Source: Dehalococcoidales bacterium (GTDB lineage Bacteria > Chloroflexota > Dehalococcoidia > Dehalococcoidales > UBA5627). Taken from it: a DNA stretch of 64,000 nucleotides. The stretch's first letter is position 1, and each line of letters starts with the position of its first letter. The stretch lies in NCBI GenBank assembly GCA_041656115.1, contig JBBAED010000001.1, forward strand, positions 98,873 through 162,872. Reading direction: 5' to 3'. A program made the position numbers and the translations under genes. Below the pieces are notes generated by a model. That model was not told where the DNA came from, searched no databases, and saw nothing but the letters and a program-made list of their open reading frames with translations. Positions 3,512 to 64,000 of this stretch are shown in pieces.

Positions 3512-4645
3512 ATGGCTAAGACAAGTTTTGTACCAAATCCGGCAAAAATTAAAGTTATCGGCCTTGGCGGCGGTGGCTGTAATGCCGTTACCCGCATGGT
3601 CAGGGAAGAAATTCAGGGCGTTGAATTTATAGCAATGAACACCGACGCGCAGGCACTGGCTATAACGGAAGCCCCCATCAGAATTCAGCTCGGAGAAAAA
3701 TTAACTCGCGGGCTTGGTGTTGGCGGAGACCATCTCAAGGGTCAGAAAGCAGCGGAAGAGAATAAGGACGAATTAAAAGACCTTATTACAGGGGCCGATA
3801 TGGTCTTTATCACCGCAGGCATGGGCGGCGGTACCGGAACCGGTTCCGCATCCGTAGTGGCCGAAGTTGCCAAGGAGAGCGGAGCTCTTACGATTGCGGT
3901 GGTTACCAAACCGTTCACTTTTGAAGGCGCACATCGCACCGAGGTTGCTAAAGACGGTATCGCCAAATTGTTACCGAAGGTTGATACCCTTATTATCATC
4001 CCCAACGACAGATTACTTGACCTCTGCGATCAGAAAACCGGCGTTGACAGCGCCTTTAAGATGGCAGATGATGTTTTACGCCACGGCGTACAGGCGATTT
4101 CCGAAGTTATTACCGTCCCCGGCGTAATTAACCTTGACTTTGCCGATGTAAAAGCGGTTATGAAAGATGCGGGTCCGGCTTGGATGTCCATCGGACGCGG
4201 CACCGGCAAGAACCGTGCGGTTGATGCAGCCAAAGAAGCGCTGGCCAGCCCGTTACTGGATGTAACCATTGACGGCTCAAAGGGTGTTCTCTTTAATGTT
4301 GTCGGCGGTACCGATCTTTCACTCTATGAAGTCAATGAGGCGGCGGAAGTAATCAGACAGGCAGTTGATGCCGATGCCAATATTATCTTCGGTGTAGCCA
4401 CCGATCCGAGTATGGGCAGCGATGTCAGGATTACTCTTATTACCACCGGCTTTGTTACCAAGACAGAGTTCTCCGATTCAACCGAGGAAGATGAAATCAC
4501 CAAGCAATTGAAGAACATCAGGACCGAGGACGAATTGGATATCCCGACGTTTATCAGACAGCCGCTCTATAAAAAACAGCAGGTTGTTACTCCGGTTGAC
4601 AGGATTGTCCATAACGAAAGAAAAACCAGGATGTGGTTTCAATAA
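3512..4645 (+). CDS. ftsZ: Cell division GTPase FtsZ
   Basis: GLGGGGCNAV and the tubulin signature GMGGGTGTGSA. NLDFADVKAV T7 loop. C-terminal DIPTFIRQ peptide. GGAGG RBS. Confidence 0.97.
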   Translation: MAKTSFVPNPAKIKVIGLGGGGCNAVTRMVREEIQGVEFIAMNTDAQALAITEAPIRIQLGEKLTRGLGVGGDHLKGQKAAEENKDELKDLITGADMVFITAGMGGGTGTGSASVVAEVAKESGALTIAVVTKPFTFEGAHRTEVAKDGIAKLLPKVDTLIIIPNDRLLDLCDQKTGVDSAFKMADDVLRHGVQAISEVITVPGVINLDFADVKAVMKDAGPAWMSIGRGTGKNRAVDAAKEALASPLLDVTIDGSKGVLFNVVGGTDLSLYEVNEAAEVIRQAVDADANIIFGVATDPSMGSDVRITLITTGFVTKTEFSDSTEEDEITKQLKNIRTEDELDIPTFIRQPLYKKQQVVTPVDRIVHNERKTRMWFQ

Positions 4646-4684
4646 TTCGATTTAAAAGTCAATCGGATAAATAAGACTTAATAA

Positions 4685-4725
4685 AAAGCCGCAGGCTCTA
4701 ACGCCTGCGGCTTTTGCGTTTTTAG
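4685..4725 (+). terminator. Rho-independent terminator after ftsZ
   Basis: Perfect 12-bp stem AAAGCCGCAGGC / GCCTGCGGCTTT with a 6-nt loop, followed by a T-rich tract. Confidence 0.8.
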
Positions 4726-4728
4726 ATT

Positions 4729-5110
4729 GTCTTTGCGAGGAACGAGCCCTTGGGCGAGCGACGTGGCAATCTCGCTTTTATCATACTGCTTTTCCCCTTT
4801 TGTCATCCTGAATGAAATGAAGGATCTAAGAGGACGGGAAATGTAGACTATGAGGCTGCCTCGGAGTCAAATAAGAGGCATCGTCTGGATGTGATTTGGT
4901 AACCGAACACTGCACTATTCGCTAACCCCTAGATTCTTTGCCATGCTCAGAATGACAATAACAGAAACGTCTTTGCGAGGAATGAGCCTTTGGGCGAGTG
5001 ACGTGGCAATCTCCAAGGAATTTAATCTATATGAGATTCTTCGCTTCGCTCTGAAAGACAGTGGAGTTTATTTATTAGAGATTGCTTCGCTGCGCTCGCA
5101 AAGACAAAGA
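4729..5110. repeat. Intergenic modular repeat array 1 (modules A, Y, A-D, D; plus orientation)
   Basis: Contains GTCTTTGCGAGGAAYGAGCC..GGCGAG.GACGTGGCAATCTC (A), TTGTCATCCTGAATGAAATGAAGGATCTAAGAGGACGGGAA...GCTCAGAATGACAA (Y) and GAGATTGCTTCGCTGCGCTCGCAAAGACAA (D). All three recur at seven other loci. Confidence 0.95.
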
Positions 5111-5244
5111 AGAGTTGTTTCCTCCTCTTTATCAAAATAGTCTTGCAAAGACAAAATATTCCCTCTTCTTTTACTCATTAGAAACGGCCTTACAAAGGCA
5201 AATTACTGACTAAAAACAACACTTCAAAAAATCTTTAACAATGC

Positions 5245-5299
5245 TTGACATCCACTACATATTGTGGTACCCTTGCAACGCTAATACTACATAGCGAGG
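5245..5299 (+). promoter_or_regulatory. nrdR-nrdJ promoter region with tandem NrdR boxes
   Basis: TTGACA at 5245-5250. Palindromic CCACTACATATTGTGG at 5252-5267 and a second half-conserved copy ATACTACATAGCGAGG at 5284-5299. The start-to-start offset is 32 bp, the spacing reported for tandem NrdR boxes (consensus roughly acaCwAtATaTwGtgt). Confidence 0.65.
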
Positions 5300-5306
5300 T
5301 GGCCCT

Positions 5307-5840
5307 ATGAAATGCCCCTATTGTAAAAGCGCAGATTTAAAAGTGATTGATTCCCGTGACGTCAACGAAGGCATCAGGCGACGCAGGCAATGCCTTAGTT
5401 GTAATTCAAGGTTTACTACCTACGAAAGAATACAGCCCAGCAGCCTTTTTATTATCAAAAAGGATATGCGGCGGGAAGAATTTAACAAAGAAAAACTGCT
5501 TTCGGGGATTCAGAAAGCCTGCGGAAAGCGACCGCTGCCTATCGGAGCGATTCAAGAGCTTGCCGATAACATCGAAGCCGAGTTATACGGTTTGGGGAAA
5601 AGCGAGATAGACAGTTCTAAAGTTGGTGATATGGTAATGGAAGGGTTACGCAAAATGGATTACATTGCCTATATCAGATTCGCCAGCGTCTATCGTGATT
5701 TTAGTGATATTACCGATTTAAAACACGAAATAGATGCCTTGGTTAATGCCGGAATAATCAAAAAAAATAAGGCCGGCGGGCAATTGACCCTTTTGCCCGA
5801 TGATACAACAGGAAAAAATATCCGGAAGGCGGAGAAATAG
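5307..5840 (+). CDS. nrdR: Transcriptional repressor NrdR (zinc ribbon + ATP-cone)
   Basis: MKCPYC...CLSCNSRFTTYE zinc ribbon, followed by an ATP-cone (IIKKDMRREEFNKEKLLSGIQKA). The C-terminal tail is ~25 aa longer than usual. Confidence 0.93.
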   Translation: MKCPYCKSADLKVIDSRDVNEGIRRRRQCLSCNSRFTTYERIQPSSLFIIKKDMRREEFNKEKLLSGIQKACGKRPLPIGAIQELADNIEAELYGLGKSEIDSSKVGDMVMEGLRKMDYIAYIRFASVYRDFSDITDLKHEIDALVNAGIIKKNKAGGQLTLLPDDTTGKNIRKAEK

Positions 5841-5845
5841 CTATT

Positions 5846-8500
5846 ATGAGCAAAACCAACAATTCAAAAGAAAAAATAATCGACCGTACGCAAGTTGCCC
5901 GAATAATCTTTTCGGCGGCTGATTCGATGGGAATCTCCGACAGGAAGCGGATTGAACTGTTAGCGGGCCAAGTTATCGATAGGCTGGAGCGTCCGCAAAC
6001 GTTGCCTGGCATGGAAGATTTGGTTCCCAAGAATTACCGCGCACCGCTTTCGGCAACCGAATCCGAAATCTTAAGCGTGGTTAAGGAATTTCTGGCAGAC
6101 GAGCAACCGGAAGATGAAACTGCCGGTTCGACGGAAGAAATCATATTGCAAACAGGGGATGATGTTTGCGTAGAGATAATACCGGAGGGCTCACAGGCGC
6201 TCTCCGCCCATCAAAACAAGACTATTACAAAGGAGAAAGAAGCCATGGTTGTTACTTCACAAGCTTCTCAAGGAGTTAGTTTAACCGACAATGCCCTTCA
6301 GGTGTTGGAAAGAAGATATCTAAAAAAAGATAAGCAGGGGAATCTGATTGAAACCCCCGAAGAATTATTCCGCCGTGTGGCACATACCATTGCCGCGGCG
6401 GAGACTGAATACGGCACCAAAACCGCTGCCAAAAAGTGGGAAGAGACCTTTTATAATTTAATGACTAATCTCGAATTCCTGCCCAACTCGCCGACGCTAA
6501 TGAATGCGGGCAGAGAGCTGGGGCAGCTTTCGGCCTGTTTCGTACTGCCGATTGAGGATTCGATGGAATCTATTTTTGAAACCGTTAAAAATACGGCCCT
6601 TATCCACAAAAGCGGCGGCGGTACCGGTTTTTCTTTCTCCAAATTGCGTCAAGAGATGGACAGGGTCGGCACAACCGGCGGCGTCGCCAGTGGGCCGGTT
6701 TCCTTTATGAGGGCTTTTGATGTTGCAACCGATGTAATTAAACAGGGCGGTACGCGCCGCGGTGCCAATATGGCTATTTTAAGCGTCGATCACCCCGATA
6801 TTATCAAGTTTATTACCTCAAAAGAAGATATGGTTTCTTTAACCAATTTCAATATTTCGGTAGCGGTTACCGCCGATTTTATGAAAGCGGCCCAAAACGG
6901 GGCGGATTACAATCTAATTAACCCGCGTACCAAAGAAGTTGTCGGTAAGCTCAATGCCAAGACGGTGTTTGAAAAGATGGTGGAGCTTGCCTGGAAAACG
7001 GGCGATCCGGGGATTATCTTTATCGAACGCATCAATCGCGATAACCCCACCCCGCACCTCGGGCAAATAGAAAGCACCAATCCGTGCGGAGAACAGCCGT
7101 TATTGCCTTATGAATCCTGTAATTTGGGTTCAATTAATCTAACAAAAATGCTGGTTGAAAAGGACAGCATGTTTGAAATTGATTATAACAAGCTGGCGCA
7201 GACCGTAAAAGCGGCGGTGCGTTTCTTGGATAATGTGATTGATGTTAATAAGTACCCGATTCCCGAAATCGGTGAGATGACCCGTAAAACACGTAAAATC
7301 GGCTTGGGAGTGATGGGTTTTGCCGATATGCTTCTGAAACTGGGCGTTCCCTATAACTCGGAAAAGGCGTTAATGCTGGCGGGGGATATAATGGGCTTTG
7401 TCGATAAAGAAGCCCTCGCTTATTCATCTGTTTTAGCAGACGAACGCGGGGTATTTCCGGCATTTGAGGGCAGTGTTTACGATGTTGAGGGTGGTATTAA
7501 AGTTAGAAACGCTTCCAGAACAACAATTGCGCCAACCGGCACGCTAAGCATTATTGCCGGTTGCTCCAGCGGCATTGAACCGCTGTTTGCGCTAAGTTAT
7601 ATCCGCAACATTCTCGACGGTACCAAGATGGTTGAGGTTAACCCCTATTTTGAACAGGTTGCCAGAGAGGGCGGGTTCTACTCCGACGAGTTAATGAAAA
7701 AACTGGCCAGCGGCGAACATTTGGCCGATATCGAAGGCATTCCCGCAAAGATAAAAGAAGTTTTTGTAACGGCGCATGAAATCGATACCTCATGGCATAT
7801 CTGGATGCAATCGGCGTTCCAGAAACACACCAACAACGCCGTTTCCAAAACGGTTAATTTTGCCAGAGAGGCGACCCAAGGTGACATTGCGCGCGTTTAT
7901 ATGATGGCCTATGAAGAAGGGTTAAAAGGGATTACCATTTATCGCGATGGCAGCCGTGACGGACAGGTCCTTTCAACCGGCTCGCAAAAGAAAGAAGAAA
8001 AAGCGGCGGCTGTGGTTGAGCATACCCCTCGCCGCAGAGCCAAGGTAACCACCGGCTTTACGGAAAAGGTCAATACCGGCTGCGGACACCTCTATGTTAC
8101 CGTTAACTCCGACGAGCACGGTATTTGCGAAGTGTTTTCCAGTTTAGGCAAATCGGGCGGGTGTGCTTCGGCGCAGCTGGAAGCTATTTGCCGTTTAATC
8201 TCGCTTGCTTTAAGATCGGGGATTGAGGTTAGCTCACTGGTTAAACAGCTTGAAGGTATTCGCTGCCCGTCTATTGCTTGGGAGGGCGGCAAATCAACCC
8301 TTTCCTGTGCCGATGCCATCGCCGGTGTTTTGGATGGCCATTTTAAAGCAACCAATGGCAGCGAGGAAGCGGCTGAAAAGCCGGTTAAAGATTACGGGCT
8401 TGTAAAAAATATTGCCGGGCAATGCCCCGATTGCGGAAGTATCCTTGTTTTTGAGGAAGGCTGTTTTAAATGCCCCGGCTGCGGTTATACCAAATGTTAA
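5846..8500 (+). CDS. nrdJ: Adenosylcobalamin-dependent (class II) ribonucleotide reductase NrdJ with N-terminal extension and C-terminal zinc ribbon
   Basis: LERRYL, LPNSPTLMNAG, ACFVL, GGGTGFSFS, NPCGEQPL and SCNLGSINL active-site motifs, then TIYRDGSR. C-terminal CPDCG...CFKCPGCG. The first ~140 aa have no motif I recognise, so the true start could be internal. Confidence 0.9.
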   Translation: MSKTNNSKEKIIDRTQVARIIFSAADSMGISDRKRIELLAGQVIDRLERPQTLPGMEDLVPKNYRAPLSATESEILSVVKEFLADEQPEDETAGSTEEIILQTGDDVCVEIIPEGSQALSAHQNKTITKEKEAMVVTSQASQGVSLTDNALQVLERRYLKKDKQGNLIETPEELFRRVAHTIAAAETEYGTKTAAKKWEETFYNLMTNLEFLPNSPTLMNAGRELGQLSACFVLPIEDSMESIFETVKNTALIHKSGGGTGFSFSKLRQEMDRVGTTGGVASGPVSFMRAFDVATDVIKQGGTRRGANMAILSVDHPDIIKFITSKEDMVSLTNFNISVAVTADFMKAAQNGADYNLINPRTKEVVGKLNAKTVFEKMVELAWKTGDPGIIFIERINRDNPTPHLGQIESTNPCGEQPLLPYESCNLGSINLTKMLVEKDSMFEIDYNKLAQTVKAAVRFLDNVIDVNKYPIPEIGEMTRKTRKIGLGVMGFADMLLKLGVPYNSEKALMLAGDIMGFVDKEALAYSSVLADERGVFPAFEGSVYDVEGGIKVRNASRTTIAPTGTLSIIAGCSSGIEPLFALSYIRNILDGTKMVEVNPYFEQVAREGGFYSDELMKKLASGEHLADIEGIPAKIKEVFVTAHEIDTSWHIWMQSAFQKHTNNAVSKTVNFAREATQGDIARVYMMAYEEGLKGITIYRDGSRDGQVLSTGSQKKEEKAAAVVEHTPRRRAKVTTGFTEKVNTGCGHLYVTVNSDEHGICEVFSSLGKSGGCASAQLEAICRLISLALRSGIEVSSLVKQLEGIRCPSIAWEGGKSTLSCADAIAGVLDGHFKATNGSEEAAEKPVKDYGLVKNIAGQCPDCGSILVFEEGCFKCPGCGYTKC

Positions 8501-13838: not shown

Positions 13839-15536
13839 ATGCGCTTATCACAGTTATTCGGAAAGACTCAAAGGGAGATTCCGGCAGAAGCCGATACAGT
13901 CAGCCATCAACTGATGCTGCGTACCGGCATGATTCGCCAGCTTACCGCCGGTGTTTATTCGTATTTACCGTTGGCGCTTCGTGCGTTGTATAAAATAGAA
14001 AATATTATCAGAGATGAAATGGACAAAGCCGGCGGGCAGGAAATATGTATGCCGGTCTTACAACCGATTGAACTCTGGGAAAAATCGGGTAGGGTTAGCG
14101 GATTTGGGAAAAATCTGTTCCGCTTATATGACCGCAAAGAACGCGAATTGGCGCTGGGGCCCACTCATGAAGAAGTTGTGACCGATTTGGTTGGGCGCAC
14201 CGTTCAGAGTTACCGTGAACTGCCTTTGCTTTTATACCAAATCCAAACCAAATTCCGTGACGAACTGCGTCCCAGAGGCGGGCTGGTACGCGTACGTGAA
14301 TTTGTGATGAAAGACCTTTACAGTTTTGATACCGATGCCGAAGGGTTAGATATCAGTTACCGTAAAATGGTTACCGCTTACGAAAATATCTTTGCCAGAT
14401 GCGGGCTGCCGGTTATTATGATTGAAGCCGATAGCGGAGCAATCGGAGGCAAAGATTCCAATGAATTTATGGCCGTTTCCGAAATGGGCGAAGATGAAAT
14501 TATCTACTGCAAAAATTGCGGGAATGCCGCTAATGCCGAAAAGGCAAAAAGTATCAAACCCGAAGCCAACAACGGCGAACCGCTGGCGACGGAGGAAGTT
14601 GCCACCCCCGGTTGTAAAACTATCGCAGAAGTGTGTAACTACTTGGGAATCGAACCGATAAATACGTTAAAAGCCGTTTTCTATGTTGCCGACGAAGAAT
14701 TTATTTTTGTTTGTTTGCGCGGCGATATAGATGTAAACGAAGTAAAATTAAAGAACCTTTTACGCTGTGCCGAACTAAGGCTGGCAACCGAAGAAGAAGT
14801 TACCGCCAAAGGGATAGTTGCCGGATTTGCATCGCCAATCGGGCTCAAGAACGTGAAAGTTGTGGTTGATGAATCGGTTGGCGTCGGAACAAACTTTGTT
14901 GCCGGCGGCAATAAAACCGATTTTCATATTAAAAACGTCAACTTCCCCAGGGATTTTGAAGCTGATTTAATTGCCGATATTGCGCTGGCAGCCGTCGGTG
15001 ACGGTTGTGCAAAATGCGGTTTCGAATTATCTGTTGATCGCGGTATAGAGTTAGGGCATGTATTTAAACTGGGGACTTTCTTAAGCGAAAAGCTGGGAGC
15101 CTATTATATTGACGCAAACGGCGAATCAAAACCGATAGTGATGGGCTGTTACGGTATCGGTGTCGGCAGGTTAATGGCAGCCGCCATTGAGGTTAACCAT
15201 GACGATAAAGGCATTATTTGGCCTAAAAATATTGCCCCCTATCAGGTTCATATTTGCCCGCTATTTATGGAAAACTTACAAGTTGCCGAAAAAGCGGAGG
15301 AACTCTACAAAGAATTGGAACTCTGTGGCATAGAGGTACTTTACGATGACCGCAACGAATCTACCGGAATTAAATTTAACGATGCCGACCTTTTAGGAAT
15401 TCCGCTGCGAATTACCGTTAGCCCGCGTTCACTGGAAAAAGGGTGCATCGAAATAAAGCGGCGTTCGGAAAAAACGGCGGAGCTTATTCCCGTTAACGAA
15501 GCGATTGAAAAGGTTAAGGCAATACTGGCGGGCTAG
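13839..15536 (+). CDS. proS: Prolyl-tRNA synthetase, bacterial type with INS editing domain
   Basis: MRLSQLFGKTQRE, class II motifs (REFVMKDLYSFD, GCYGIGVGRL) and a central ~180-aa insertion. GGAG RBS. Confidence 0.95.
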   Translation: MRLSQLFGKTQREIPAEADTVSHQLMLRTGMIRQLTAGVYSYLPLALRALYKIENIIRDEMDKAGGQEICMPVLQPIELWEKSGRVSGFGKNLFRLYDRKERELALGPTHEEVVTDLVGRTVQSYRELPLLLYQIQTKFRDELRPRGGLVRVREFVMKDLYSFDTDAEGLDISYRKMVTAYENIFARCGLPVIMIEADSGAIGGKDSNEFMAVSEMGEDEIIYCKNCGNAANAEKAKSIKPEANNGEPLATEEVATPGCKTIAEVCNYLGIEPINTLKAVFYVADEEFIFVCLRGDIDVNEVKLKNLLRCAELRLATEEEVTAKGIVAGFASPIGLKNVKVVVDESVGVGTNFVAGGNKTDFHIKNVNFPRDFEADLIADIALAAVGDGCAKCGFELSVDRGIELGHVFKLGTFLSEKLGAYYIDANGESKPIVMGCYGIGVGRLMAAAIEVNHDDKGIIWPKNIAPYQVHICPLFMENLQVAEKAEELYKELELCGIEVLYDDRNESTGIKFNDADLLGIPLRITVSPRSLEKGCIEIKRRSEKTAELIPVNEAIEKVKAILAG

Positions 15537-15619
15537 CTCAGCCCGGCTTTTTCCGATTTTTTGTTATTTATTGCTATAATAAAGACCTAAACATTACAAA
15601 AAAGGATGGGGAAATATTT

Positions 15620-16105
15620 ATGTTTGCAATGTTTGCTAAATTAAAGAGATTTTTCTTCTCGGCATTAGTGGGAGCAATCGGAATCGGTGTGGCCGGAGTC
15701 CTTTTTGCATACCTCAACGGAATGGATGACGGGAGCACTTTGCTATGGATTTTGGGGTGGCTTCTGATTGGTTTTATTGTTAACGTTACCATCGGATTTG
15801 TGGTAAGCGGTAATAAACTGTCTAAGTTTGTAATGTGGGGTATTATCGCCGGTGTTGTGGCCGGATTCTTATCGGCTGACCCGAGTTATGACCTTTGGAT
15901 GAAAATGGGAATCATTGGGCTTACTCTCGGTATCGGAATCGGCATTGCCGGTGTTTCTTATACACCGCCGGCAGATAAAAAACCTGCACCGAAACAAAAA
16001 GAAGAGCCAAAAGATCCCAGAAATATCCCCTGTGATGAATGCGGTTCACTTGTAGCGGAAGACGACAACTTCTGCCACGAATGCGGCACCGAATTTGAAG
16101 AATAG
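15620..16105 (+). CDS. Membrane protein with C-terminal zinc ribbon
   Basis: About 4 predicted hydrophobic helices, a Pro/Lys-rich linker, then CDECGSLVAEDDNFCHECG. Confidence 0.6.
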   Translation: MFAMFAKLKRFFFSALVGAIGIGVAGVLFAYLNGMDDGSTLLWILGWLLIGFIVNVTIGFVVSGNKLSKFVMWGIIAGVVAGFLSADPSYDLWMKMGIIGLTLGIGIGIAGVSYTPPADKKPAPKQKEEPKDPRNIPCDECGSLVAEDDNFCHECGTEFEE

Positions 16106-16133
16106 CTTCTAAAAAAATAGAACAAAATGAAAA

Positions 16134-16166
16134 CGCCCTGCCGATAACCGACAGGGCGTAATTTTT
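16134..16166. terminator. Bidirectional terminator between convergent genes
   Basis: Stem CGCCCTG / CAGGGCG with an 11-nt loop. It is flanked by an A-run upstream and a T-run downstream. Confidence 0.65.
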
Positions 16167-16181
16167 ACCGAAACAAACCGA

Positions 16182-18578
16182 TTACGCTCTTAATGTTACC
16201 CCAAGTGCGCCTTGCAGTTTTTTCAGGATTTGCTCAAGGACTTTATCCACCGCGACATCGGTAAGCGTCTGCTCCGCGGATTGGAAAAGCAGTCTGTAAG
16301 CAACTGATTTTTTACCGGCCTCAACCTGCTTACCGGTATAAACATCAAAAAGGATTACTTCGTTTACCAAAGAAAACTTTTTAATGATATCGACAATCTG
16401 TTTATGGGTTACATTGTTATCCAAAACAAGGGCAATATCCCTAATCACGGACGGGAAACGAGCAATCGGTTTATAACCGCCGGAACGTAAAGCAAACGAG
16501 AGAAGCGTTGAAATATTCAGCTCAAACATAAAGATCTTCCCGGTAATATCAAAGGCCGCAGCCACCTTGGGGTGGACCTCTCCGAGAACACCGATTTTAC
16601 TGCCGCTAACAACAATTTCCGCCTGATGTCCGGGGCGTAAGCTGTCGTCGTCACTTGCTTTAAAATCCGCTCTGACATACAAAGAGGAAAGCAGGCTTTC
16701 CGCAACACCCTTTACCGTAAAGAAATCAAACGGCGGGGTATTAGTCGGCCAAACCTTTTCCTGCTCGGGATTATACATCAGCCCACAAAGGATTTCGGGT
16801 TCATTCGGCAGGTTATTATCACGCTTAATATAAATGCGATTCAGTTCAAAAATGCGTACCGGGCCTTCTTCGTGCCTTAAATTGGATTCCAATATCGCTA
16901 AAAGCCCGCTTCGTAAATTGGTGCGCAGATATTCTTGCTCGGCGCTCATTGCGTTGTACAATTTAACCGGTTCTTTTTGCAAAGCGTTTGAAGCATAAGC
17001 CTTCGCCAGCATTTCTACATTGGTTAAAGAATAGTTAATCACCTCATCAAAACCAAAACCGACTAAGGTTTGCCGTACACGGTTTTTGAGGTCCATCAAA
17101 TAGTTCGGCTCCTGATGAGCAATCGAACCGCTCAGAAGTGTAGTGGGAATATTTTCATAACCGATAATGCGTGCCAGCTCTTCGATAACATCAACTTCAA
17201 TATTGATATCGCTGCGCCAGCAAGGGGCTTTAACCGAATATTCACTGTCGGATTCGATATTAACCTCAAATCCCAGCCCTTTAAGCGTGGCAAGCACTTG
17301 TTCGTTACTGAATTCAACACCGAGAATGCGTTTTATTTCACTGCGGCGCAAAATCAAGGGCTTTTGTTCGTATTTTTGCGGATAGACATCTACAATTCCC
17401 TTTGCCGCACAGCCGCCCGCGATTTGCAATATCAGCTGAGTTGCGCGTCGCAGGGCGTAAACGGTTAAGTCGGGGCGAATCCCCCTCTCAAACCGCATAC
17501 TGGCTTCGCTCACAAGCTTTAGGCTATGACTGGTGTAATGAATACTTGCGGAATTGAAGTTAGCAGATTCGATTAGTATTGAAGCGGCATTTTCCGTTAT
17601 ATCGCTGTTTGCCCCGCCCATCACACCGGCAATCGCAACCGATTTTTCGCCGTCGGTAATCATTAATGTATTTTCGGTTAATTTACGCTCAACGTCGTCG
17701 AGTGTTCGGATAACTTCGCCACATTGGGCACGGCGAATAACTATTTTATTGGTTTTTATTTTATCGTAATCGAAACTGTGTAAGGGTTGCCCGTACTCCA
17801 ACATTACGTAGTTTGTAATATCAACGATATTACTGATTGGGCGAATACCGCAAGCCGTTAAACGCTGCTTAAGCCATTCGGGCGATTCCTCTATTTTGAC
17901 CCCGGTTATTAAACTTGCCGAATAGCGCGAGCATAAATCTTGGTCTGCGATTGATATTGAAACTTGCCCTTCTATCGCTTCACCGACTTCATCATAAGTT
18001 AAATCCGGTAGTTTCACTTTTTTATCGGTAATTGCCGCCACTTCCCAAGCAACACCGATTACGGACAGTAAATCGGGGCGGTTGGGGGTAACATCTATAT
18101 CAAGAATAATATCGGAAAGAAACTCGGCTAAACCTTTCCCTAAAGGTGCTTCCGGCGCCAATACCAAAATCCCCTCATGTTCATCGGATAAGCCCAGTTC
18201 TCTTTCGGAACAAACCATACCGCAGGATTCAACACCGCGAATCTTTGCCGGTTTTAGAATCGATTTTTCTCCGGTATATCCGTCAATCAAATTAGCGCCA
18301 ATCGATGCATAGGCAATTTTATCGCCGACGGTGAGGTTGGGGGCACCGCAAACTACTGTTTGCAGCCCGCTTCCGGTATCGACGGTGGCAAGTCTTAACC
18401 TATCGGCGTTGGGGTGGGGGTCAATAGCAGCAATTTGTCCGATAATAACGCCTTCCCAGCTTTCCCCGATATATCTGATTTCGGATTCGGTCCCCGACAT
18501 TGTCAGCGCATGTGCCAACTCTTTGGGGGATAAATCTATATCTACATAATCTTTAAGCCACTTAATAGGTATCTTCAT
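16182..18578 (-). CDS. pheT: Phenylalanyl-tRNA synthetase beta subunit
   Basis: 798 aa. N-terminal MKIPIKWLKDYV and a tRNA-binding OB domain (HPNADRL), then B3/4, B5 and FDX-ACB regions. Follows pheS with a 2-nt gap. Confidence 0.95.
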   Translation of the reverse strand: MKIPIKWLKDYVDIDLSPKELAHALTMSGTESEIRYIGESWEGVIIGQIAAIDPHPNADRLRLATVDTGSGLQTVVCGAPNLTVGDKIAYASIGANLIDGYTGEKSILKPAKIRGVESCGMVCSERELGLSDEHEGILVLAPEAPLGKGLAEFLSDIILDIDVTPNRPDLLSVIGVAWEVAAITDKKVKLPDLTYDEVGEAIEGQVSISIADQDLCSRYSASLITGVKIEESPEWLKQRLTACGIRPISNIVDITNYVMLEYGQPLHSFDYDKIKTNKIVIRRAQCGEVIRTLDDVERKLTENTLMITDGEKSVAIAGVMGGANSDITENAASILIESANFNSASIHYTSHSLKLVSEASMRFERGIRPDLTVYALRRATQLILQIAGGCAAKGIVDVYPQKYEQKPLILRRSEIKRILGVEFSNEQVLATLKGLGFEVNIESDSEYSVKAPCWRSDINIEVDVIEELARIIGYENIPTTLLSGSIAHQEPNYLMDLKNRVRQTLVGFGFDEVINYSLTNVEMLAKAYASNALQKEPVKLYNAMSAEQEYLRTNLRSGLLAILESNLRHEEGPVRIFELNRIYIKRDNNLPNEPEILCGLMYNPEQEKVWPTNTPPFDFFTVKGVAESLLSSLYVRADFKASDDDSLRPGHQAEIVVSGSKIGVLGEVHPKVAAAFDITGKIFMFELNISTLLSFALRSGGYKPIARFPSVIRDIALVLDNNVTHKQIVDIIKKFSLVNEVILFDVYTGKQVEAGKKSVAYRLLFQSAEQTLTDVAVDKVLEQILKKLQGALGVTLRA

Positions 18579-58397: not shown

Positions 58398-58652
58398 TTA
58401 TTCAACAGTTTCTATGTTATAACCCAATGTTTCCCCTAGTATTATACATCCCTCCAGTAAATCATTATATTTATTTTCTGACAATGTTATGCCTTTTTTT
58501 GAAGGAAAGTATTCTTCTCTGTCTTTTCCCATAAAGAAGATTCGAATATCAATATATTTTGTACCTTTGTATTCATTTAGCATTATTCGAATCTGTTCCT
58601 TGGAATTCTTTTGGAATGAATGGATTAAAATCCCAAACTCTTCGCTTTCCAT
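58398..58652 (-). CDS. PC4/YdbC-like ssDNA-binding protein
   Basis: 84 aa. IRIMLNEYKGTKYIDIRIFF...PSKKGITLSENKYNDL matches the bacterial PC4 (transcriptional coactivator p15-like) pattern. Confidence 0.6.
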   Translation of the reverse strand: MESEEFGILIHSFQKNSKEQIRIMLNEYKGTKYIDIRIFFMGKDREEYFPSKKGITLSENKYNDLLEGCIILGETLGYNIETVE

Positions 58653-58723
58653 TTCACATCCTCCACATAAAACAATAGTGGGGAAACATCCCCCACTATT
58701 GTACCACTGGCTATACTGAAACT

Positions 58724-59794
58724 CTAGTTGGTGATACTGCCAGAATCCCTTAATTTTTCGGACATATCATCTGCTATTAAATTAAATCCTTTCATTGATC
58801 CTGCCATAGCCGCTCCGTCAGCATTATCATTTCTCCAATAATCCGGCGATATAAACTCTTCAAGATTCGTGAGAATATTTTTGATATCACTTATGGAAGG
58901 ATCGCTTATTCCATTTACCCTTAATTCTTCTAAAATATCAAAAGCCAGTATATGAAAACTAAAAACACCCGGTGTTTTTTGTATAACATATTCATTTGGT
59001 GTCTCAAATGCTTCTGGTATTAATTCCTGTAATGCTATCCAAAGATATTTTATTTTTTCGGCCAATCTAGTTGGTGTCCATGTACTATACGGGCGCTGAT
59101 TTAAAATGGGTTTTAAGGATGTGCTAAAAGATAATTCCCTCACGATGTGGCCACTTTCCTTTCTGCTGTTTGGTGGCTGTATTTTGCCCTTCCACGGTGA
59201 ATCATGGTCCATTCCGAGTATTTTGATTATTTCGGCCGACGTTGCTTCCCAAACCCTGCCAGATAGCCTTATTGCTCTTCTTCCTTCTGGCGAGCCATCT
59301 GAATATTTTAAGGCCAGTAATCTTCGAGCTAAATCTGTACGCACCTTCTTCATGGTTTCATTGATAATTCTAAATTGATTGGCCTCATCTTCTGATTCCA
59401 TATTTTCTATTATCACTATTGGCAATTCGTAGTCCAACAGCCTGTCTAATCCAAACTCTTCAATTGCTCTTTTAATACCATACACCCTGTGTTGCCCATC
59501 CACTATATAAATCTCTGAATTAGCGGGGATGTCAATAAACTCTCCCTCTTTTTCCAACTGCCCCCTGTAACTCAACAATATACTTGTGGGTAATAAAGGG
59601 CGGGATTCATTTTTTAAATAACTCGCCACTTTTTTTGTTCGAGCAGGTTCTGGCATTCTTTGATACCCTTTATATTCCCCGCCTTCCTCTCTATAAACAT
59701 CCACTTCGCAAGCATCTACCAAATCCCCCGCTTTTACTACTCCGGAATACAATTGAACGCCCTCTTGTCTAAACGGAATAACCTTAATTCTCAT
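58724..59794 (-). CDS. DGQHR-domain protein (DndB/DpdB-like, ParB-fold)
   Basis: Literal DGQHR motif (IYIVDGQHRVYG), downstream QFRIINETMKKV, and N-terminal KGYQRMPEPARTKKVASYL. AT-rich. Confidence 0.8.
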   Translation of the reverse strand: MRIKVIPFRQEGVQLYSGVVKAGDLVDACEVDVYREEGGEYKGYQRMPEPARTKKVASYLKNESRPLLPTSILLSYRGQLEKEGEFIDIPANSEIYIVDGQHRVYGIKRAIEEFGLDRLLDYELPIVIIENMESEDEANQFRIINETMKKVRTDLARRLLALKYSDGSPEGRRAIRLSGRVWEATSAEIIKILGMDHDSPWKGKIQPPNSRKESGHIVRELSFSTSLKPILNQRPYSTWTPTRLAEKIKYLWIALQELIPEAFETPNEYVIQKTPGVFSFHILAFDILEELRVNGISDPSISDIKNILTNLEEFISPDYWRNDNADGAAMAGSMKGFNLIADDMSEKLRDSGSITN

Positions 59795-60136: not shown

Positions 60137-61102
60137 GTGAACGAGATAGAACGTACGGACAGTAAAGAGATAATCCACCCCGGCGAATTTAATCTGGAAG
60201 AAAAGCAAATGCTGGAACAAATCTATGCCGGAGCGGGGCTTGAGCCTGTGGTTGAGGCCGGAATTAAGGATTACGATGAAAAGATGCAAAAGGAGAGCAA
60301 ACTCCTTAACAAGGTTTTGGGAACCCGCGGGAGCGATATTAAGGGTTACGGGGAAGCGGTAGCCAAGAGGGTTGCCTTTGCCGTTTACCAGACGTTAAAC
60401 CGTCAGTACGGCGGTAAAATGGGCGATTTGCGAATCCATATCAACGCCCTTCAGGACGAGCGCGATCGCGCCCGAGATAAATATGATGACCTAATGGGGC
60501 GTGTGGTAGGCATTCTCGGTGAAGAATACAAAAACCTGCGCACGGATTCCAAAGAATATATGGTAAAACTAACCACTATTCTGGATTCGGACCTCAAGGA
60601 ATCGCGCATAGATCAAAAAGCGTTAGCGGAAACGCTTGCCGATATCGACGGCCTAAGAGACCAAATCAAACGGTTGGAAAACGAAAAAGAAGCCTTAATT
60701 AAAGAACACGCCGATAAAGAGACGGCACTGATAAAAGAAAGCGACAGGGTCGCTGCCGAGTTGAAAAATGAAATCGCCGGTAAGCAAGAAGAAATTGTAA
60801 AGCTTGAACAACAATCGGAAACCCTAACCGGAGAGCTTGCGGTTTCTCGCGGCCAATACGAAAAGCTGGCAACCAGCGCCAACCAAGTGGCAGTAGCTAT
60901 TAACTATGAAGAAATCGGTGCGGCGCATGCTGAAAGCCTTTATAAATATCTGGTTGAGGATTCCAAAGTCCCGAAGTTTGTTCTTGAGGGCGTTGGCAAG
61001 TTTATCGATTTTAATAAGTACCTTAGAACGGCGGTTGCTAAGGGAGCGGAAGAAGCCACCGTACAAGCCGATGCGATACTTAAGGACGGTATGGAGGGGT
61101 AG
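60137..61102 (+). CDS. Coiled-coil protein, unknown function
   Basis: 321 aa from a GTG start 5 nt after AGGAGG. Long heptad-rich central region (DGLRDQIKRLENEKEALIKEHADKETALIKE...). Base composition resembles the core genome. Confidence 0.6.
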   Translation: MNEIERTDSKEIIHPGEFNLEEKQMLEQIYAGAGLEPVVEAGIKDYDEKMQKESKLLNKVLGTRGSDIKGYGEAVAKRVAFAVYQTLNRQYGGKMGDLRIHINALQDERDRARDKYDDLMGRVVGILGEEYKNLRTDSKEYMVKLTTILDSDLKESRIDQKALAETLADIDGLRDQIKRLENEKEALIKEHADKETALIKESDRVAAELKNEIAGKQEEIVKLEQQSETLTGELAVSRGQYEKLATSANQVAVAINYEEIGAAHAESLYKYLVEDSKVPKFVLEGVGKFIDFNKYLRTAVAKGAEEATVQADAILKDGMEG

Positions 61103-61137
61103 GGAATAGATCTGTTTTTGATTGTAAAAGCTTTTTG

Positions 61138-61839
61138 TTAAATTTTTTCGATGTAATTTTGTAATGTTTCTACATCGTAAAGAGATACATTTCCATTGTT
61201 GCAGACCAGATAGAACTTAATGTCCAGTTTATGCCAACCAAAACCGCACAGATTTTTTCTAAGGACTTTTATGTAGTCTTCGGTTAGCGGGATTGCCAAT
61301 GCGTGGCTTGCATTTGTGTCTGTCATTCGACTGATAATTTGTCCAACACCTATTAAAAAGTTCATTTCCGCAGATACGTATCCACCCCTGTCTTCTCCTT
61401 TTATTTCGACTATTGTTTTTTCTCCGTTTTTTTCTATAATCAGGTCAATTTTACCGCTTTTACATGGAACTTCCGTACTTATTTTGTAATTCTGAGTTTT
61501 AAAGTAATTGGTCAGCATATATTGGATTGCGCTCTCTGTAAAAGGATTCTCTTTGTCTTCATTGGGGATATTGGAATCTTTGCGAGAAACACATTTGCAA
61601 CATATCCAACCTTCCCCCTCTTTTCCGCGTTTTGCACTTAACCATGACAAAGCCTCATTATGGTCGTCAAAAAATATTTTATTAACGTTTACGTTTGTTT
61701 TTTTAATCCAAGAACATGAGGCTGCGTGTAATTTATTATTTGTTGTAGGTTTAATACCGCCCGCAAAGTCGTTGTAAATAAACCCTATTCCTCTACCATG
61801 TAAATAGTTCAATCTTTCATTTGTTTTTATTATTTCCAT
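61138..61839 (-). CDS. PD-(D/E)xK nuclease-like protein with N-terminal Cys/His domain
   Basis: The C-terminal half has E (FTESAIQ), D (SGKIDLII), ExK (VEIKGE) and Q (GVGQIISR) in the order of restriction-endonuclease-like cores. The N-terminus has H-x3-C...CC-x-C (LHAASCSWI...GWICCKCV). Very AT-rich. GGAGAA RBS. Confidence 0.5.
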   Translation of the reverse strand: MEIIKTNERLNYLHGRGIGFIYNDFAGGIKPTTNNKLHAASCSWIKKTNVNVNKIFFDDHNEALSWLSAKRGKEGEGWICCKCVSRKDSNIPNEDKENPFTESAIQYMLTNYFKTQNYKISTEVPCKSGKIDLIIEKNGEKTIVEIKGEDRGGYVSAEMNFLIGVGQIISRMTDTNASHALAIPLTEDYIKVLRKNLCGFGWHKLDIKFYLVCNNGNVSLYDVETLQNYIEKI

Positions 61840-61855
61840 TTATGTAGTTCTCCAA

Positions 61856-63370
61856 TCATTTATTTTTGTTAACATTTTCGTTTTCAAATTCTTGAAGAAT
61901 TTTGTCTATTTCATTTCTGGTAAAATTATCACCGTGGTCTTCTTCAATCGTATTGGTTTTAGGAGTAAATTCCCAATTACCAACGTGTTCTACTTCAGGA
62001 TTAAAAAATGTTGCCATTGTTAAGCTTTCTTTGGTTATTAGCTTCCTATATTTTCCAATCTCGGCTTCAATAACTATGAACTTTACGGGTTTGTTAGTAA
62101 TTGAATATTGTTTTTTCACTATATTTGCGATTGTTTTCATCAAGGTTTCCTTTGGGCGCTCGTACCCCCATTCTTCAAGAGCATAAGTCCCCTTTATCCC
62201 AACCCAAACTATACCTTTTCCTTCACGTCCTAGGGTAGCATGGATATTTTTTTCGGAATAGCATGCATCGGGGAATAAATCTAGTAACTTATTGCTTATT
62301 TTTGAAAAATGTGAAGGCTCGCCCAATTGTTTTAATGTTAAAAATATTTTTTGCCATAGATTTAATTTTTTTATTATATTAGTTACGCTTTCCTTTATAA
62401 TTGTTTGACGATCACCTTCAATTAAGGGGCAGTCTTCTCTAAAAATAATATCCTCCAGGCAATTGTTTTGGCAAAAAATGTGTTTCCATGCTTCAAGGGA
62501 AGAATCATTCGATGTAAATTTTCCAATCATTTTGATATTGGTTTTAGGGAATTTATTAATCGGTATATCAAGGAGCTTAAATAAAAACATTATTTCATTT
62601 TTTATTTTTGAATCTAATATCAAACTACACTTTTTGTTCAGAATATAAATAAGTAGGAGGGACAATAACAATTTTTTATTTGGTACAAGGCTGATTTTCT
62701 TCCATGCTTTTACTTGTATTTGTCTTATTCGTTCTCTTGTTCTGTTATATAGGAGCCCTATTTCTTCAAGGGTTAATTTTTTTTCTCCAAATAAACCTTC
62801 TCTATAAGAAATGACCGCCCTTTGAGTGCAAGTTAGCCCATCTATCATGTCTTTTAAAGTATTAAATATTATATCTTCTGTAAAGGGTGAATAATTTTTT
62901 AAATAATACCTATTTAATATGTCTATCTGTACAGATTCTAGTCGATTTTTATCTATAAACGACAAGATGTATGCTAATGGAAACGTGTAGTTATCATTCG
63001 AGTAGGTTCGCAGGTTGATTAAGCCGTAGGCATTACCAAATTCAATAAATTCAGTGGGTATTGTAGTCCATTGGCTCTGTAATCGAAGATTGTTAATTTC
63101 GAATAGCAATTGCTCGGAGGATAAAGAGTGTAATCTGAGTGATGCTAATCGAAAGTTGATTCGAATAAACCTTTTAAAAAGAGTATCCTTTGATATGAAG
63201 ACTGATGGGAAATCGGTTGTATGCCAAATGAATAAGTTACTGTTTTCAATTTTTACCAAAATTTCCTCAATATCATCTTCATAAAAGTGTACAGTTATAT
63301 CTTCGGCTTGGAATGCATGAGGTAATTCTGCAAGTGTCCTTATAATGTAATTTTGTTGGTCATTATTCAT
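61856..63370 (-). CDS. Sigma-70 region-4-like HTH + HARE-HTH-like protein
   Basis: LTCTQRAVISYREGLFGEKKLTLEEIGLLYNRTRERIRQIQVKAWKKI closely fits the sigma70_r4 pattern. LKQLGEPSHFSKISNKLLDLF...GIVWVGIKGTYALEEWGY fits the HARE-HTH pattern. ATGA overlap with the upstream gene. Very AT-rich. Confidence 0.55.
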   Translation of the reverse strand: MNNDQQNYIIRTLAELPHAFQAEDITVHFYEDDIEEILVKIENSNLFIWHTTDFPSVFISKDTLFKRFIRINFRLASLRLHSLSSEQLLFEINNLRLQSQWTTIPTEFIEFGNAYGLINLRTYSNDNYTFPLAYILSFIDKNRLESVQIDILNRYYLKNYSPFTEDIIFNTLKDMIDGLTCTQRAVISYREGLFGEKKLTLEEIGLLYNRTRERIRQIQVKAWKKISLVPNKKLLLSLLLIYILNKKCSLILDSKIKNEIMFLFKLLDIPINKFPKTNIKMIGKFTSNDSSLEAWKHIFCQNNCLEDIIFREDCPLIEGDRQTIIKESVTNIIKKLNLWQKIFLTLKQLGEPSHFSKISNKLLDLFPDACYSEKNIHATLGREGKGIVWVGIKGTYALEEWGYERPKETLMKTIANIVKKQYSITNKPVKFIVIEAEIGKYRKLITKESLTMATFFNPEVEHVGNWEFTPKTNTIEEDHGDNFTRNEIDKILQEFENENVNKNK

Positions 63371-63840
63371 GCCCTGTGTGGTATAGTCCCCCCACTTATT
63401 TGCTCTGCGATTCGGCGAGTCCCCTTTTCACAGCTGCCCCAATTTAAATCTACTGGAATCATTTCAATTTTTGGTATATATCTGCGTAAAATAATTACTT
63501 TTTCCAACCATTTTCTTTTAACCCCCAAATCTCTTTCTAAATGATTGTATATCCCATCTATTTCTACTTCCAGTTTTTTTAGATCATCAATAAATTTAAA
63601 AATAATGTCTCCCAGTTCCCATATTTTTCTTGCGGGTAATTTTATTCGGTTATGTCTAAAATATTCGATTTCGGTTAACTTGGTCTTCATATTAAGTATT
63701 GAGTCTTCATATGCCGAAGACGCTTTTTTAAGTAGTGAATCGAAATCATCGTTTTTTAAAAGAAAATCTTTCAAGTTAATTGATGCAATATACCCTTCGG
63801 CAGTTTTGTCAAAAGAAACGAATACAATTTCTTCCTTCAT
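63367..63840 (-). CDS. Hypothetical protein (157 aa), first recognisable gene of the low-GC operon
   Basis: Intact ORF, translationally coupled downstream (ATGA). A possible 33-aa ORF upstream (63840-63941) joins it through a TAATG junction. No motif recognised. Confidence 0.45.
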   Translation of the reverse strand: MKEEIVFVSFDKTAEGYIASINLKDFLLKNDDFDSLLKKASSAYEDSILNMKTKLTEIEYFRHNRIKLPARKIWELGDIIFKFIDDLKKLEVEIDGIYNHLERDLGVKRKWLEKVIILRRYIPKIEMIPVDLNWGSCEKGTRRIAEQISGGTIPHRA

Positions 63841-64000
63841 TATTTTCTTCCCCAGACTGATATTAATTTGTCCACAAAAGATAAATCATTTGTGTCGCCG
63901 ACAAAAAGAAACTTTTGCATAGCGTTAGCTATTGCGTACATACAATGTGTCCTTTTTACTTGTGAATTTGTGGATGCTCTTTTGTAAGCAGGGTTCCCTG

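Follow-up and report, generated by a model that had tools for sequence, protein, structure and literature searches.

Prokaryotic MORC and paraMORC systems are defined by conserved linkage to superfamily 2 helicases, nucleases and DNA methylases (Iyer, Abhiman & Aravind 2008, PMC2292703), and Tiamat (TmtA) is a single protein of more than 1500 amino acids (aa) that joins a GHL ATPase and a DUF3684 domain to a fused PD-(D/E)xK (NOV_C) nuclease (bioRxiv 10.64898/2026.09.30.754977). GHL ATPases of these kinds (MORC, paraMORC, Hsp90-like and Tiamat) are only now emerging as immune components, and for sigma-type helix-turn-helix (HTH) domains in defence proteins a precedent exists in BrxL and a DndH variant. 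Considered here is an AT-rich operon at the edge of a 64,000-nucleotide (nt) stretch of DNA, hereafter the window, from Dehalococcoidales bacterium (UBA5627; assembly GCA_041656115.1, contig JBBAED010000001.1, positions 98,873-162,872 of the forward strand). Judged from gene order across metagenomes, its conserved unit is a cassette of three genes, in which a GHKL ATPase gene is followed by a gene for a ~155-aa small protein and then by a gene for a ~505-aa protein combining sigma-70 region 4 (sigma4) with a HARE-HTH-like domain (sigma4/HARE protein); the fourth gene of the operon encodes a nuclease-like protein.

An earlier note on this DNA had described an abrupt fall in GC content after position 61110 and, beyond it, three tightly coupled minus-strand open reading frames (ORFs), and both observations hold. 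GC falls from 0.46-0.49 at 60200-61000 to 0.29-0.33 at 61600-63000, against a genome mean of 0.444, and the ORFs lie at 61138-61839 (233 aa), 61856-63370 (504 aa) and 63367-63840 (157 aa); the 157-aa and 504-aa genes overlap by 4 nt (ATGA, 63367-63370), and a 16-nt gap carrying GGAGAA ahead of 61839 separates the 504-aa gene from the 233-aa gene. A possible separate 33-aa ORF at 63840-63941 and the stop codon of a further ORF at 63956-63958, both also described there, turn out to be the C-terminus of one gene. The frame is open to the window edge, and in the contig past position 64000 (examined as locus L002, where the window-equivalent position is the L002 position + 58000) it continues as a minus-strand GHKL ATPase gene of 506 aa at window-equivalent 63840-65360 (L002 5840-7360), of which the window holds the last 53 codons at 63840-64000. 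The operon therefore has four genes and is cut by the window edge, and because the edge cuts the GHKL gene this partner escaped the earlier note, which had looked to the sequence beyond 64000 for completion of the operon. The stop codon of the GHKL gene overlaps the start of the 157-aa gene in a TAATG junction, and the junctions of the cassette are, as read from these overlaps and gaps, translationally coupled. The GHKL gene is preceded by 90 nt of AT-rich, promoter-like spacer and by a Shine-Dalgarno sequence, GGGAGG. The low-GC tract, a feature without strand at ~0.29-0.38, covers 61110-64000 and extends to ~window-equivalent 65400, spanning all four genes.

When metagenomes were scanned with the small protein, which is specific to the cassette, 80 loci were recovered. 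Where more than 600 nt precede the small gene, the GHKL gene stands directly upstream (63/63 loci), and where more than 700 nt follow it, the sigma4/HARE gene stands directly downstream (65/65 loci); the median tblastn gaps between the cassette genes are 6 and 22 nt. Seven homologues of the 504-aa protein, each located by exact-protein look-up, share this order without exception, with the nuclease in 0/7, and further loci in other genomes of the class conform to it. Relative to the window proteins, median identity is 53% for the GHKL protein, 51% for the small protein and 34% for the sigma4/HARE protein; the last is thus the fastest-evolving, as would fit a specificity or sensor subunit. The gene that follows the cassette varies in size and strand and usually begins after a gap of more than 100 nt. 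A variable effector slot in this position was considered and rejected, the close followers being an amidase, an alpha/beta hydrolase, a radical-SAM enzyme and unknown proteins, and the unit that moves is the three genes only.

One homologue, P0037 (L009 1086-3251), is a single 721-aa ORF in which the first ~220 GHKL residues run directly into a complete sigma4/HARE protein, and the locus lacks the small-protein gene; the fusion hints at a physical partnership, or may be a deletion derivative. Pfam, NCBIfam and PADLOC give the cassette no name, in agreement with the earlier view that the combination could not be assigned to a named system, and a literature search found no description of a GHKL, small protein and sigma4/HARE combination.

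The 506-aa protein is an apparently active GHKL ATPase of the MutL/Hsp90/MORC type (GHL branch), as its motifs indicate. Its one Pfam domain is HATPase_c_3 (45.8 bits), its NCBIfam matches are the N-terminal domains of sacsin, HtpG and MutL, and motifs I (ExxxN), II (DxGxG) and III (GxxGxG) are all present, with E32, N36, D60-N-G-x-G-M and G88-F-A-G-V-G invariant across seven orthologues. The nearest solved relatives by PDB sequence (HtpG/Hsp90, MutL and MORC2) match the N-terminal ~170 residues only. Among 1.84 billion representatives, an exhaustive profile search recovered only 844 sequences at E <= 1e-3, of which 148 reached E <= 1e-30; the strong matches are mostly proteins of 500-540 aa that align end to end, and the whole architecture, including the C-terminal half, therefore constitutes a compact, distinct family.

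Two further observations concern the GHKL gene. At locus L090, a close relative with 50% identity in the sigma4/HARE protein, the gene (4345-5863) is present as two ORFs of 151 aa and 363 aa, a split that points to decay by frameshift or to an error of assembly. A minority of the cassette loci carry a conserved small ORF of 84-106 aa on the same strand, ~50 nt upstream of the GHKL gene (L005 5682-5996; L110 8112-8429; L128 176-496; L116 355-609; L164 8197-8454). This ORF has no PDB sequence match, does not occur at the window locus, and may be an optional fourth component or regulator.

The second cassette gene (63367-63840, minus strand) encodes the 157-aa representative of a cassette-specific family without a name. 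Its 129 homologues are each of ~155 aa, none with a Pfam domain or a name, and no family was found for it in Pfam, NCBIfam, PADLOC or PHROGs. The AlphaFold 2 (AF2) model is confident (pLDDT 92.4, pTM 0.87) and comprises a beta-hairpin, a long helix and a basic helical C-terminal half; Foldseek returned nothing significant for this model in the PDB (best E 2.1) or BFVD, and a PDB sequence-profile search gave no match. The C-terminal half has an isoelectric point of 9.6 and holds the most conserved, HTH-like stretch RDLGVKRKWLEKVIILRRY, and a DNA-binding role may be inferred for the protein.

The third cassette gene (61856-63370, minus strand) encodes the 504-aa multi-winged-helix protein of DNA-binding type, which has ~80 full-length homologues, all without a name. 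Its layout consists of a variable N-terminal extension (residues 1-165), sigma-70 region 4 (residues 166-230; 62681-62875, minus strand), a variable middle region, a HARE-HTH-like winged helix (residues 336-405; 62156-62365, minus strand) and a C-terminal winged helix. Conservation within the family is greatest in the HARE-HTH-like segment (per-domain conservation 0.66) together with the C-terminal winged helix, and least in the N-terminal ~60 residues and the middle region; long variants of 620-840 aa add no recognisable Pfam domain. The AF2 model (pLDDT 86.5) shows a chain of winged helices outside sigma4, and a Foldseek search with it retrieved only sigma4 and SelB-like tandem winged helices.

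Both domains had been proposed in the earlier note; sigma4 is confirmed, and the HARE-HTH resemblance is supported. For sigma4, Pfam Sigma70_r4 (PF04545) matches residues 176-226 at 39.2 bits against a cutoff of 24.1, and the fold superposes on 1rio_H (Foldseek TMt 0.90, root-mean-square deviation 1.4 A); the NCBIfam models RpoD_Cterm and MzaA match on this segment only. Its recognition helix keeps R212, E213, R214, R216 and Q217 unchanged across 35 homologues, and these are the counterparts of the group-1 sigma-factor residues that touch the -35 element. HARE-HTH identity is supported at the profile level: hhalign of the 504-aa family with a related family carrying Sigma70_r4 and PF05066 gave a probability of 99.9% (E 6e-33) over 295 columns, from sigma4 to the C-terminus, and the partner segment aligned with residues 336-405 is the one that carries PF05066, while PF05066 itself had no direct match in the 504-aa protein or 35 homologues at E <= 0.1-1. 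That related family is separate and widespread, its members measure 350-410 aa, and several come from metagenome-assembled genomes (MAGs) labelled Patescibacteria (P0082-P0118); the recognition-helix string TRERIRQI of the 504-aa protein is also found in its consensus. The combination of Sigma70_r4 with HARE-HTH was reportedly noted by Aravind and Iyer in 2012. A profile scan of genome contigs with the 504-aa alignment was swamped by rpoD region 4 matches (TRERIRQIE) and was discarded, no loci of the family having been recovered.

It is an unlikely alternative that the cassette regulates transcription instead of acting as an effector system: the sigma4/HARE protein would dock either on -35-like sites or on RNA polymerase itself, the GHKL and small proteins would control it, loosely as an anti-sigma kinase and its antagonist do, and neighbouring or unlinked genes would be switched on or off. 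The invariant recognition-helix residues are consistent with such a role, as is the occurrence of HARE-HTH as a DNA-binding domain of the delta subunit of Gram-positive RNA polymerase; some of the sigma4 and HARE-HTH relatives are joined to the C-terminal domain of the RNA polymerase alpha subunit (PF03118), and the order of GHKL, small and sigma-like genes echoes spoIIAB/spoIIAA/sigF-type modules. The resemblance to the RsbW/SpoIIAB-RsbV/SpoIIAA-sigma partner switch, which consists of a ~140-aa HATPase_c kinase, a STAS antagonist and a complete sigma factor, nevertheless breaks down in all three components. The GHKL protein, at 506 aa, is MutL/Hsp90-like and not an RsbW-type kinase; the small protein has neither a STAS nor any other known fold; and sigma region 2 has no Pfam or NCBIfam match in the 504-aa protein or 35 homologues, so that the protein is, by its domain content, not a sigma factor. 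The neighbours of the cassette are moreover not conserved and offer no obvious regulon, and its patchy, island-like distribution is typical of conflict systems.

The 233-aa gene (61138-61839, minus strand) provides an obvious candidate for an effector. Its product combines an N-terminal module of ~95 aa with a His/Cys3 putative zinc site and a PD-(D/E)xK core, and the E...D...ExK...Q arrangement and Cys/His module pointed out in the earlier note are confirmed: H38, C42, E102, D132, E145-x-K147 and Q167 are invariant in 22 homologues, with C81 and C84 nearly so, which leaves the catalytic residues free of the variability that the note had raised as a counter-indication. Weak matches on the D...ExK region, all scoring under the curated cutoffs, fall on the cores of PDDEXK_9 (21.4 bits, cutoff 25.5), SfsA (19 bits, cutoff 22.8), UPF0102/YraN and AF1548, with PDB profile E-values of 0.015-0.27 (YraN, 3fov; AF1548, 1y88). 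Among known kinds it stands nearest to the YraN/UPF0102-, AF1548- and Mrr-like nucleases; the E...D...ExK core aligns with YraN and AF1548, and the N-terminal His/Cys3 module is its own. Its motif residues give good support to a predicted PD-(D/E)xK nuclease that carries a putative zinc module at its N-terminus. The family is small (26 homologues) and without a name, and several members come from MAGs labelled archaeal.

Whether this nuclease belongs to the cassette decides a second alternative, namely a four-gene system in which the sigma4/HARE protein and the ATPase recognise DNA and the 233-aa protein is the dedicated nuclease effector. The 16-nt gap with its GGAGAA Shine-Dalgarno sequence, the lack of a terminator between the 504-aa and 233-aa genes, the low GC common to all four genes and the invariance of the nuclease motif speak for it, and the 233-aa gene is probably co-transcribed with the cassette. 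MORC/paraMORC systems likewise pair GHKL ATPases with nucleases (PMC2292703). Against it, the nuclease gene was found in 0/80 metagenome cassette loci and is likewise missing from the further cassette loci inspected, the cassette was found at 0/3 loci of nuclease homologues, and the position after the cassette is held elsewhere by unrelated genes, among them those for the amidase and the alpha/beta hydrolase. The homologues are solitary genes of archaeal defence islands, one beside a UvrD-like helicase and McrBC and another near HNH and type I restriction-modification (R-M) genes, and no conserved partner for the nuclease was found across these loci. Because it is missing from every other cassette locus, the 233-aa gene is not part of the cassette core and is better described, on comparative grounds, as a separate, solitary defence-island nuclease that landed 16 nt downstream of the cassette. 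The four-gene alternative is accordingly improbable, and would amount at most to a local, recent co-option; the coupling of a DNA-recognition protein to a nuclease effector, as the earlier note had it, does not survive the comparison.

The distribution of the cassette is sporadic. Of 401 genomes sampled across the class, 6 carry it, whereas those sampled within the genus and the order of the window's source all lack it; in a phylum-wide sample it was found in 1/401 genomes, this being the window's own. Named sources are MAGs labelled Dehalococcoidia, SAR202, Caldiserica, Thorarchaeota and Freyarchaeota (Asgard), and the habitat is confined to uncultured lineages of sediment and groundwater, which explains its omission from defence catalogues built on cultured genomes.

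A neighbourhood census covered 149 ORFs within 2.6 kb of the cassette at 42 distinct loci (PADLOC threshold E <= 1e-8), and 149 ORFs sampled likewise around rpoD, at 42 loci drawn from rpoD region 4 matches, served as the control. PADLOC families matched numbered 319 in the cassette flanks versus 48 in the control (families, not proteins), a wide contrast by a crude measure, the control matches being mostly housekeeping cross-hits such as DnaG and dGTPase. The most recurrent flank families are N6_Mtase, GmrSD_N, Type ISP/IIG R-M, AbiEi/AbiEii, TIR, SIR2 and viperin-like radical SAM, with some housekeeping families mixed in, and the CBASS cyclase family was also matched. To judge from sequence comparison, the cassette region is horizontally acquired, laterally mobile and resident in defence islands.

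Individual loci illustrate the variety of these neighbourhoods. At L007 (793-15035) the cassette lies inside a dense defence island, with an OLD-type ATPase-TOPRIM gene, DUF5677 and DUF4238 upstream, and a series beginning 51 nt downstream that comprises a radical-SAM gene, DUF6375 and a gene for a 1372-aa protein; the viperin match of the census may be this radical-SAM gene. At L132 two copies of a 599-aa gene, 89% identical (5085-6884 and 14406-16202), bracket the cassette. A transposase was considered for this gene and rejected, the product being of the DUF262/GmrSD type (PDB 7p9k, E 9e-11), with related copies at L151 and L175.

Low GC and insertion into varied chromosomal contexts would also suit a third alternative, in which the cassette would serve the maintenance or partition of an integrated mobile element, as yet unrecognised, its ATPase working with two DNA-binding proteins, a small adaptor and a larger partner, and the Foldseek matches of the small protein include faint, non-significant ones to ParB/Spo0J. 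This is very unlikely: no integrase, transposase or flanking repeats were found around the window locus, the moving unit is just the three genes, and relatives number 0 among the 2.9 million viral contigs of IMG/VR, the 50,697 phage records of INPHARED and the 72,556 plasmid records of PLSDB, with PHROGs giving domain-level matches only. The same searches speak against the prophage or transposon context that the earlier note had set against a defence role. A housekeeping nucleoid or repair function, that of a MutL/MORC-like DNA-organising complex in a few lineages, has in its favour the work of GHL ATPases in mismatch repair and chromatin compaction (PMC2292703) and the housekeeping neighbours of some cassette loci, and is rendered hardly credible by the cassette's rarity in its class, its absence from the genomes sampled in its genus and order, its atypical composition and its defence-gene-rich flanks.

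The cassette is thus read, by a slight balance of probability, as an anti-invader conflict or defence system, and the explanation taken as a whole, that of an acquired four-gene operon made up of a three-gene conflict cassette guided by a DNA reader and of the 233-aa nuclease as a passenger, is given equal weight for and against. Several points count against this interpretation. There is no recognisable effector enzyme in the cassette besides the ATPase, and any defence mechanism is thus conjecture; a cryptic nuclease is possible in the middle or C-terminal domains of the GHKL protein; the contrast in PADLOC matches, being one of families, is semi-quantitative only; the Asgard labels rest on short MAG contigs; and the neighbours at L003, L093, L182 and L174 are metabolic or housekeeping genes.

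A tentative mechanism, more doubtful than the defence role itself, may be outlined in which the sigma4/HARE protein reads DNA and directs the ATPase to it. The protein would select its target through TTGACA-type -35-like sites, modified or unmodified bases, or both, and would then recruit, load or gate the GHKL protein, which would act as a dimeric clamp driven by ATP; the small protein would serve as a bridging adaptor or as a regulator. Rather than being cleaved, the target DNA would be blocked, compacted or silenced, or its transcription would be; in a variant of this model, the final step would fall to a nuclease that is encoded elsewhere or, like the 233-aa protein here, has been co-opted locally. 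In a bolder form of this proposal, which is speculative and unlikely as it stands, immunity would be nuclease-free: a sigma4 mimic fused to a modified-DNA reader (HARE-HTH) would direct a MORC-like clamp onto invader DNA, or onto RNA polymerase at invader promoters, silencing without cutting, and the small protein would be a new adaptor fold.

Silencing of this type, if true, would be a prokaryotic counterpart of eukaryotic MORC-mediated silencing. To our knowledge, all prokaryotic GHL immune versions described are tied to nucleases, helicases or methylases; the cassette pairs its GHL ATPase only with partners of DNA-reading type, namely sigma4, HARE-HTH and a small protein whose confidently predicted fold is unmatched, and the neighbouring nuclease, the obvious effector candidate, appears not to be the effector. 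Were the cassette protective against phages or plasmids, it would show a GHKL clamp acting without a dedicated nuclease, and the sigma4 and HARE-HTH domains would gain a defined immune role.

The surroundings of the operon bear on the extent of the acquired region. A second low-GC patch (window 58398-59794), 1.3 kb from the operon, holds a gene for a DGQHR-domain protein (DpdB/DndB-like; TIGR03187, 110 bits) followed by one for an 84-aa PC4-like single-stranded DNA-binding protein (PF02229, 54 bits). The earlier note had joined this DGQHR cassette and the operon in one defence island; a horizontally acquired, defence-island-like module is upheld, and the DGQHR gene is a matter of co-location only. 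DGQHR/DndB was rejected as a recurrent partner, having been found near the cassette only in the window and at L095, where a DndB-family gene with a 767-aa partner lies ~2 kb away. The genes flanking the island, for a 321-aa coiled-coil protein (window 60137-61102, plus strand) and an 856-aa GYF_2 and PKD protein (L002 7450-10020, minus strand), both have normal GC and are both missing from the same-genus genome G365. An empty-site comparison with that genome could therefore not define the island borders, and the variable region exceeds the low-GC tract.

Comparison with known systems begins with the solitary sigma4 and HARE-HTH proteins, which share with the 504-aa protein the TRERIRQIE recognition helix and a GxYALxEWGY HARE-HTH motif but lack its ~165-aa N-terminal extension. 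At L185 (6001-7233) such a relative follows mreB, mreC and murB and precedes DUF8128 and a TraG/TrwB-like gene, and no GHKL gene was found near the relatives in this housekeeping context or at two other loci. As these short, solitary proteins occur without a GHKL gene, linkage to the ATPase would go with the N-terminal extension.

The MZA anti-phage system (Gao_Mza) offers the best NCBIfam match of the 504-aa protein in MzaA, a large defence protein with sigma-70 region 4, and also contains a MutL-like ATPase. The match is of 47 bits against a cutoff of 800 and covers the sigma4 segment only (PADLOC MzaA, 23 bits), and no Mza model was matched by the GHKL, 157-aa or 233-aa protein. With Tiamat and the Hsp90-like antiphage ATPases the cassette shares an N-terminal GHL ATPase, which Tiamat uses for defence, and the PADLOC TmtA model meets the GHKL protein at 20 bits over residues 30-102 only, within the ATPase domain; unlike Tiamat, the cassette ATPase measures 506 aa, has no recognisable nuclease domain and is accompanied by two partners of DNA-binding type. 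A further likeness is to MORC/paraMORC systems. In these as in the cassette, a GHL (HATPase_c_3) ATPase keeps its ATP-binding motifs intact and ends in a C-terminal extension peculiar to the family, and occurrence in bacteria and archaea is sporadic, laterally mobile and among R-M-type genes. MORC/paraMORC proteins have an S5-fold transducer domain behind the GHKL domain, and matches of the 506-aa protein to solved relatives are confined to its N-terminal ~170 residues. The cassette differs from these systems in that no nuclease, helicase or methylase was recognised in its core, where only the small and sigma4/HARE proteins are invariant companions of the ATPase. By these features the cassette lies outside the definitions of the MORC/paraMORC neighbourhood, MZA, Tiamat and the solitary sigma4 and HARE-HTH proteins alike, and is best described as a conserved cassette, as yet without a name or an obvious effector, in which a GHL ATPase is joined to predicted DNA-reader partners.

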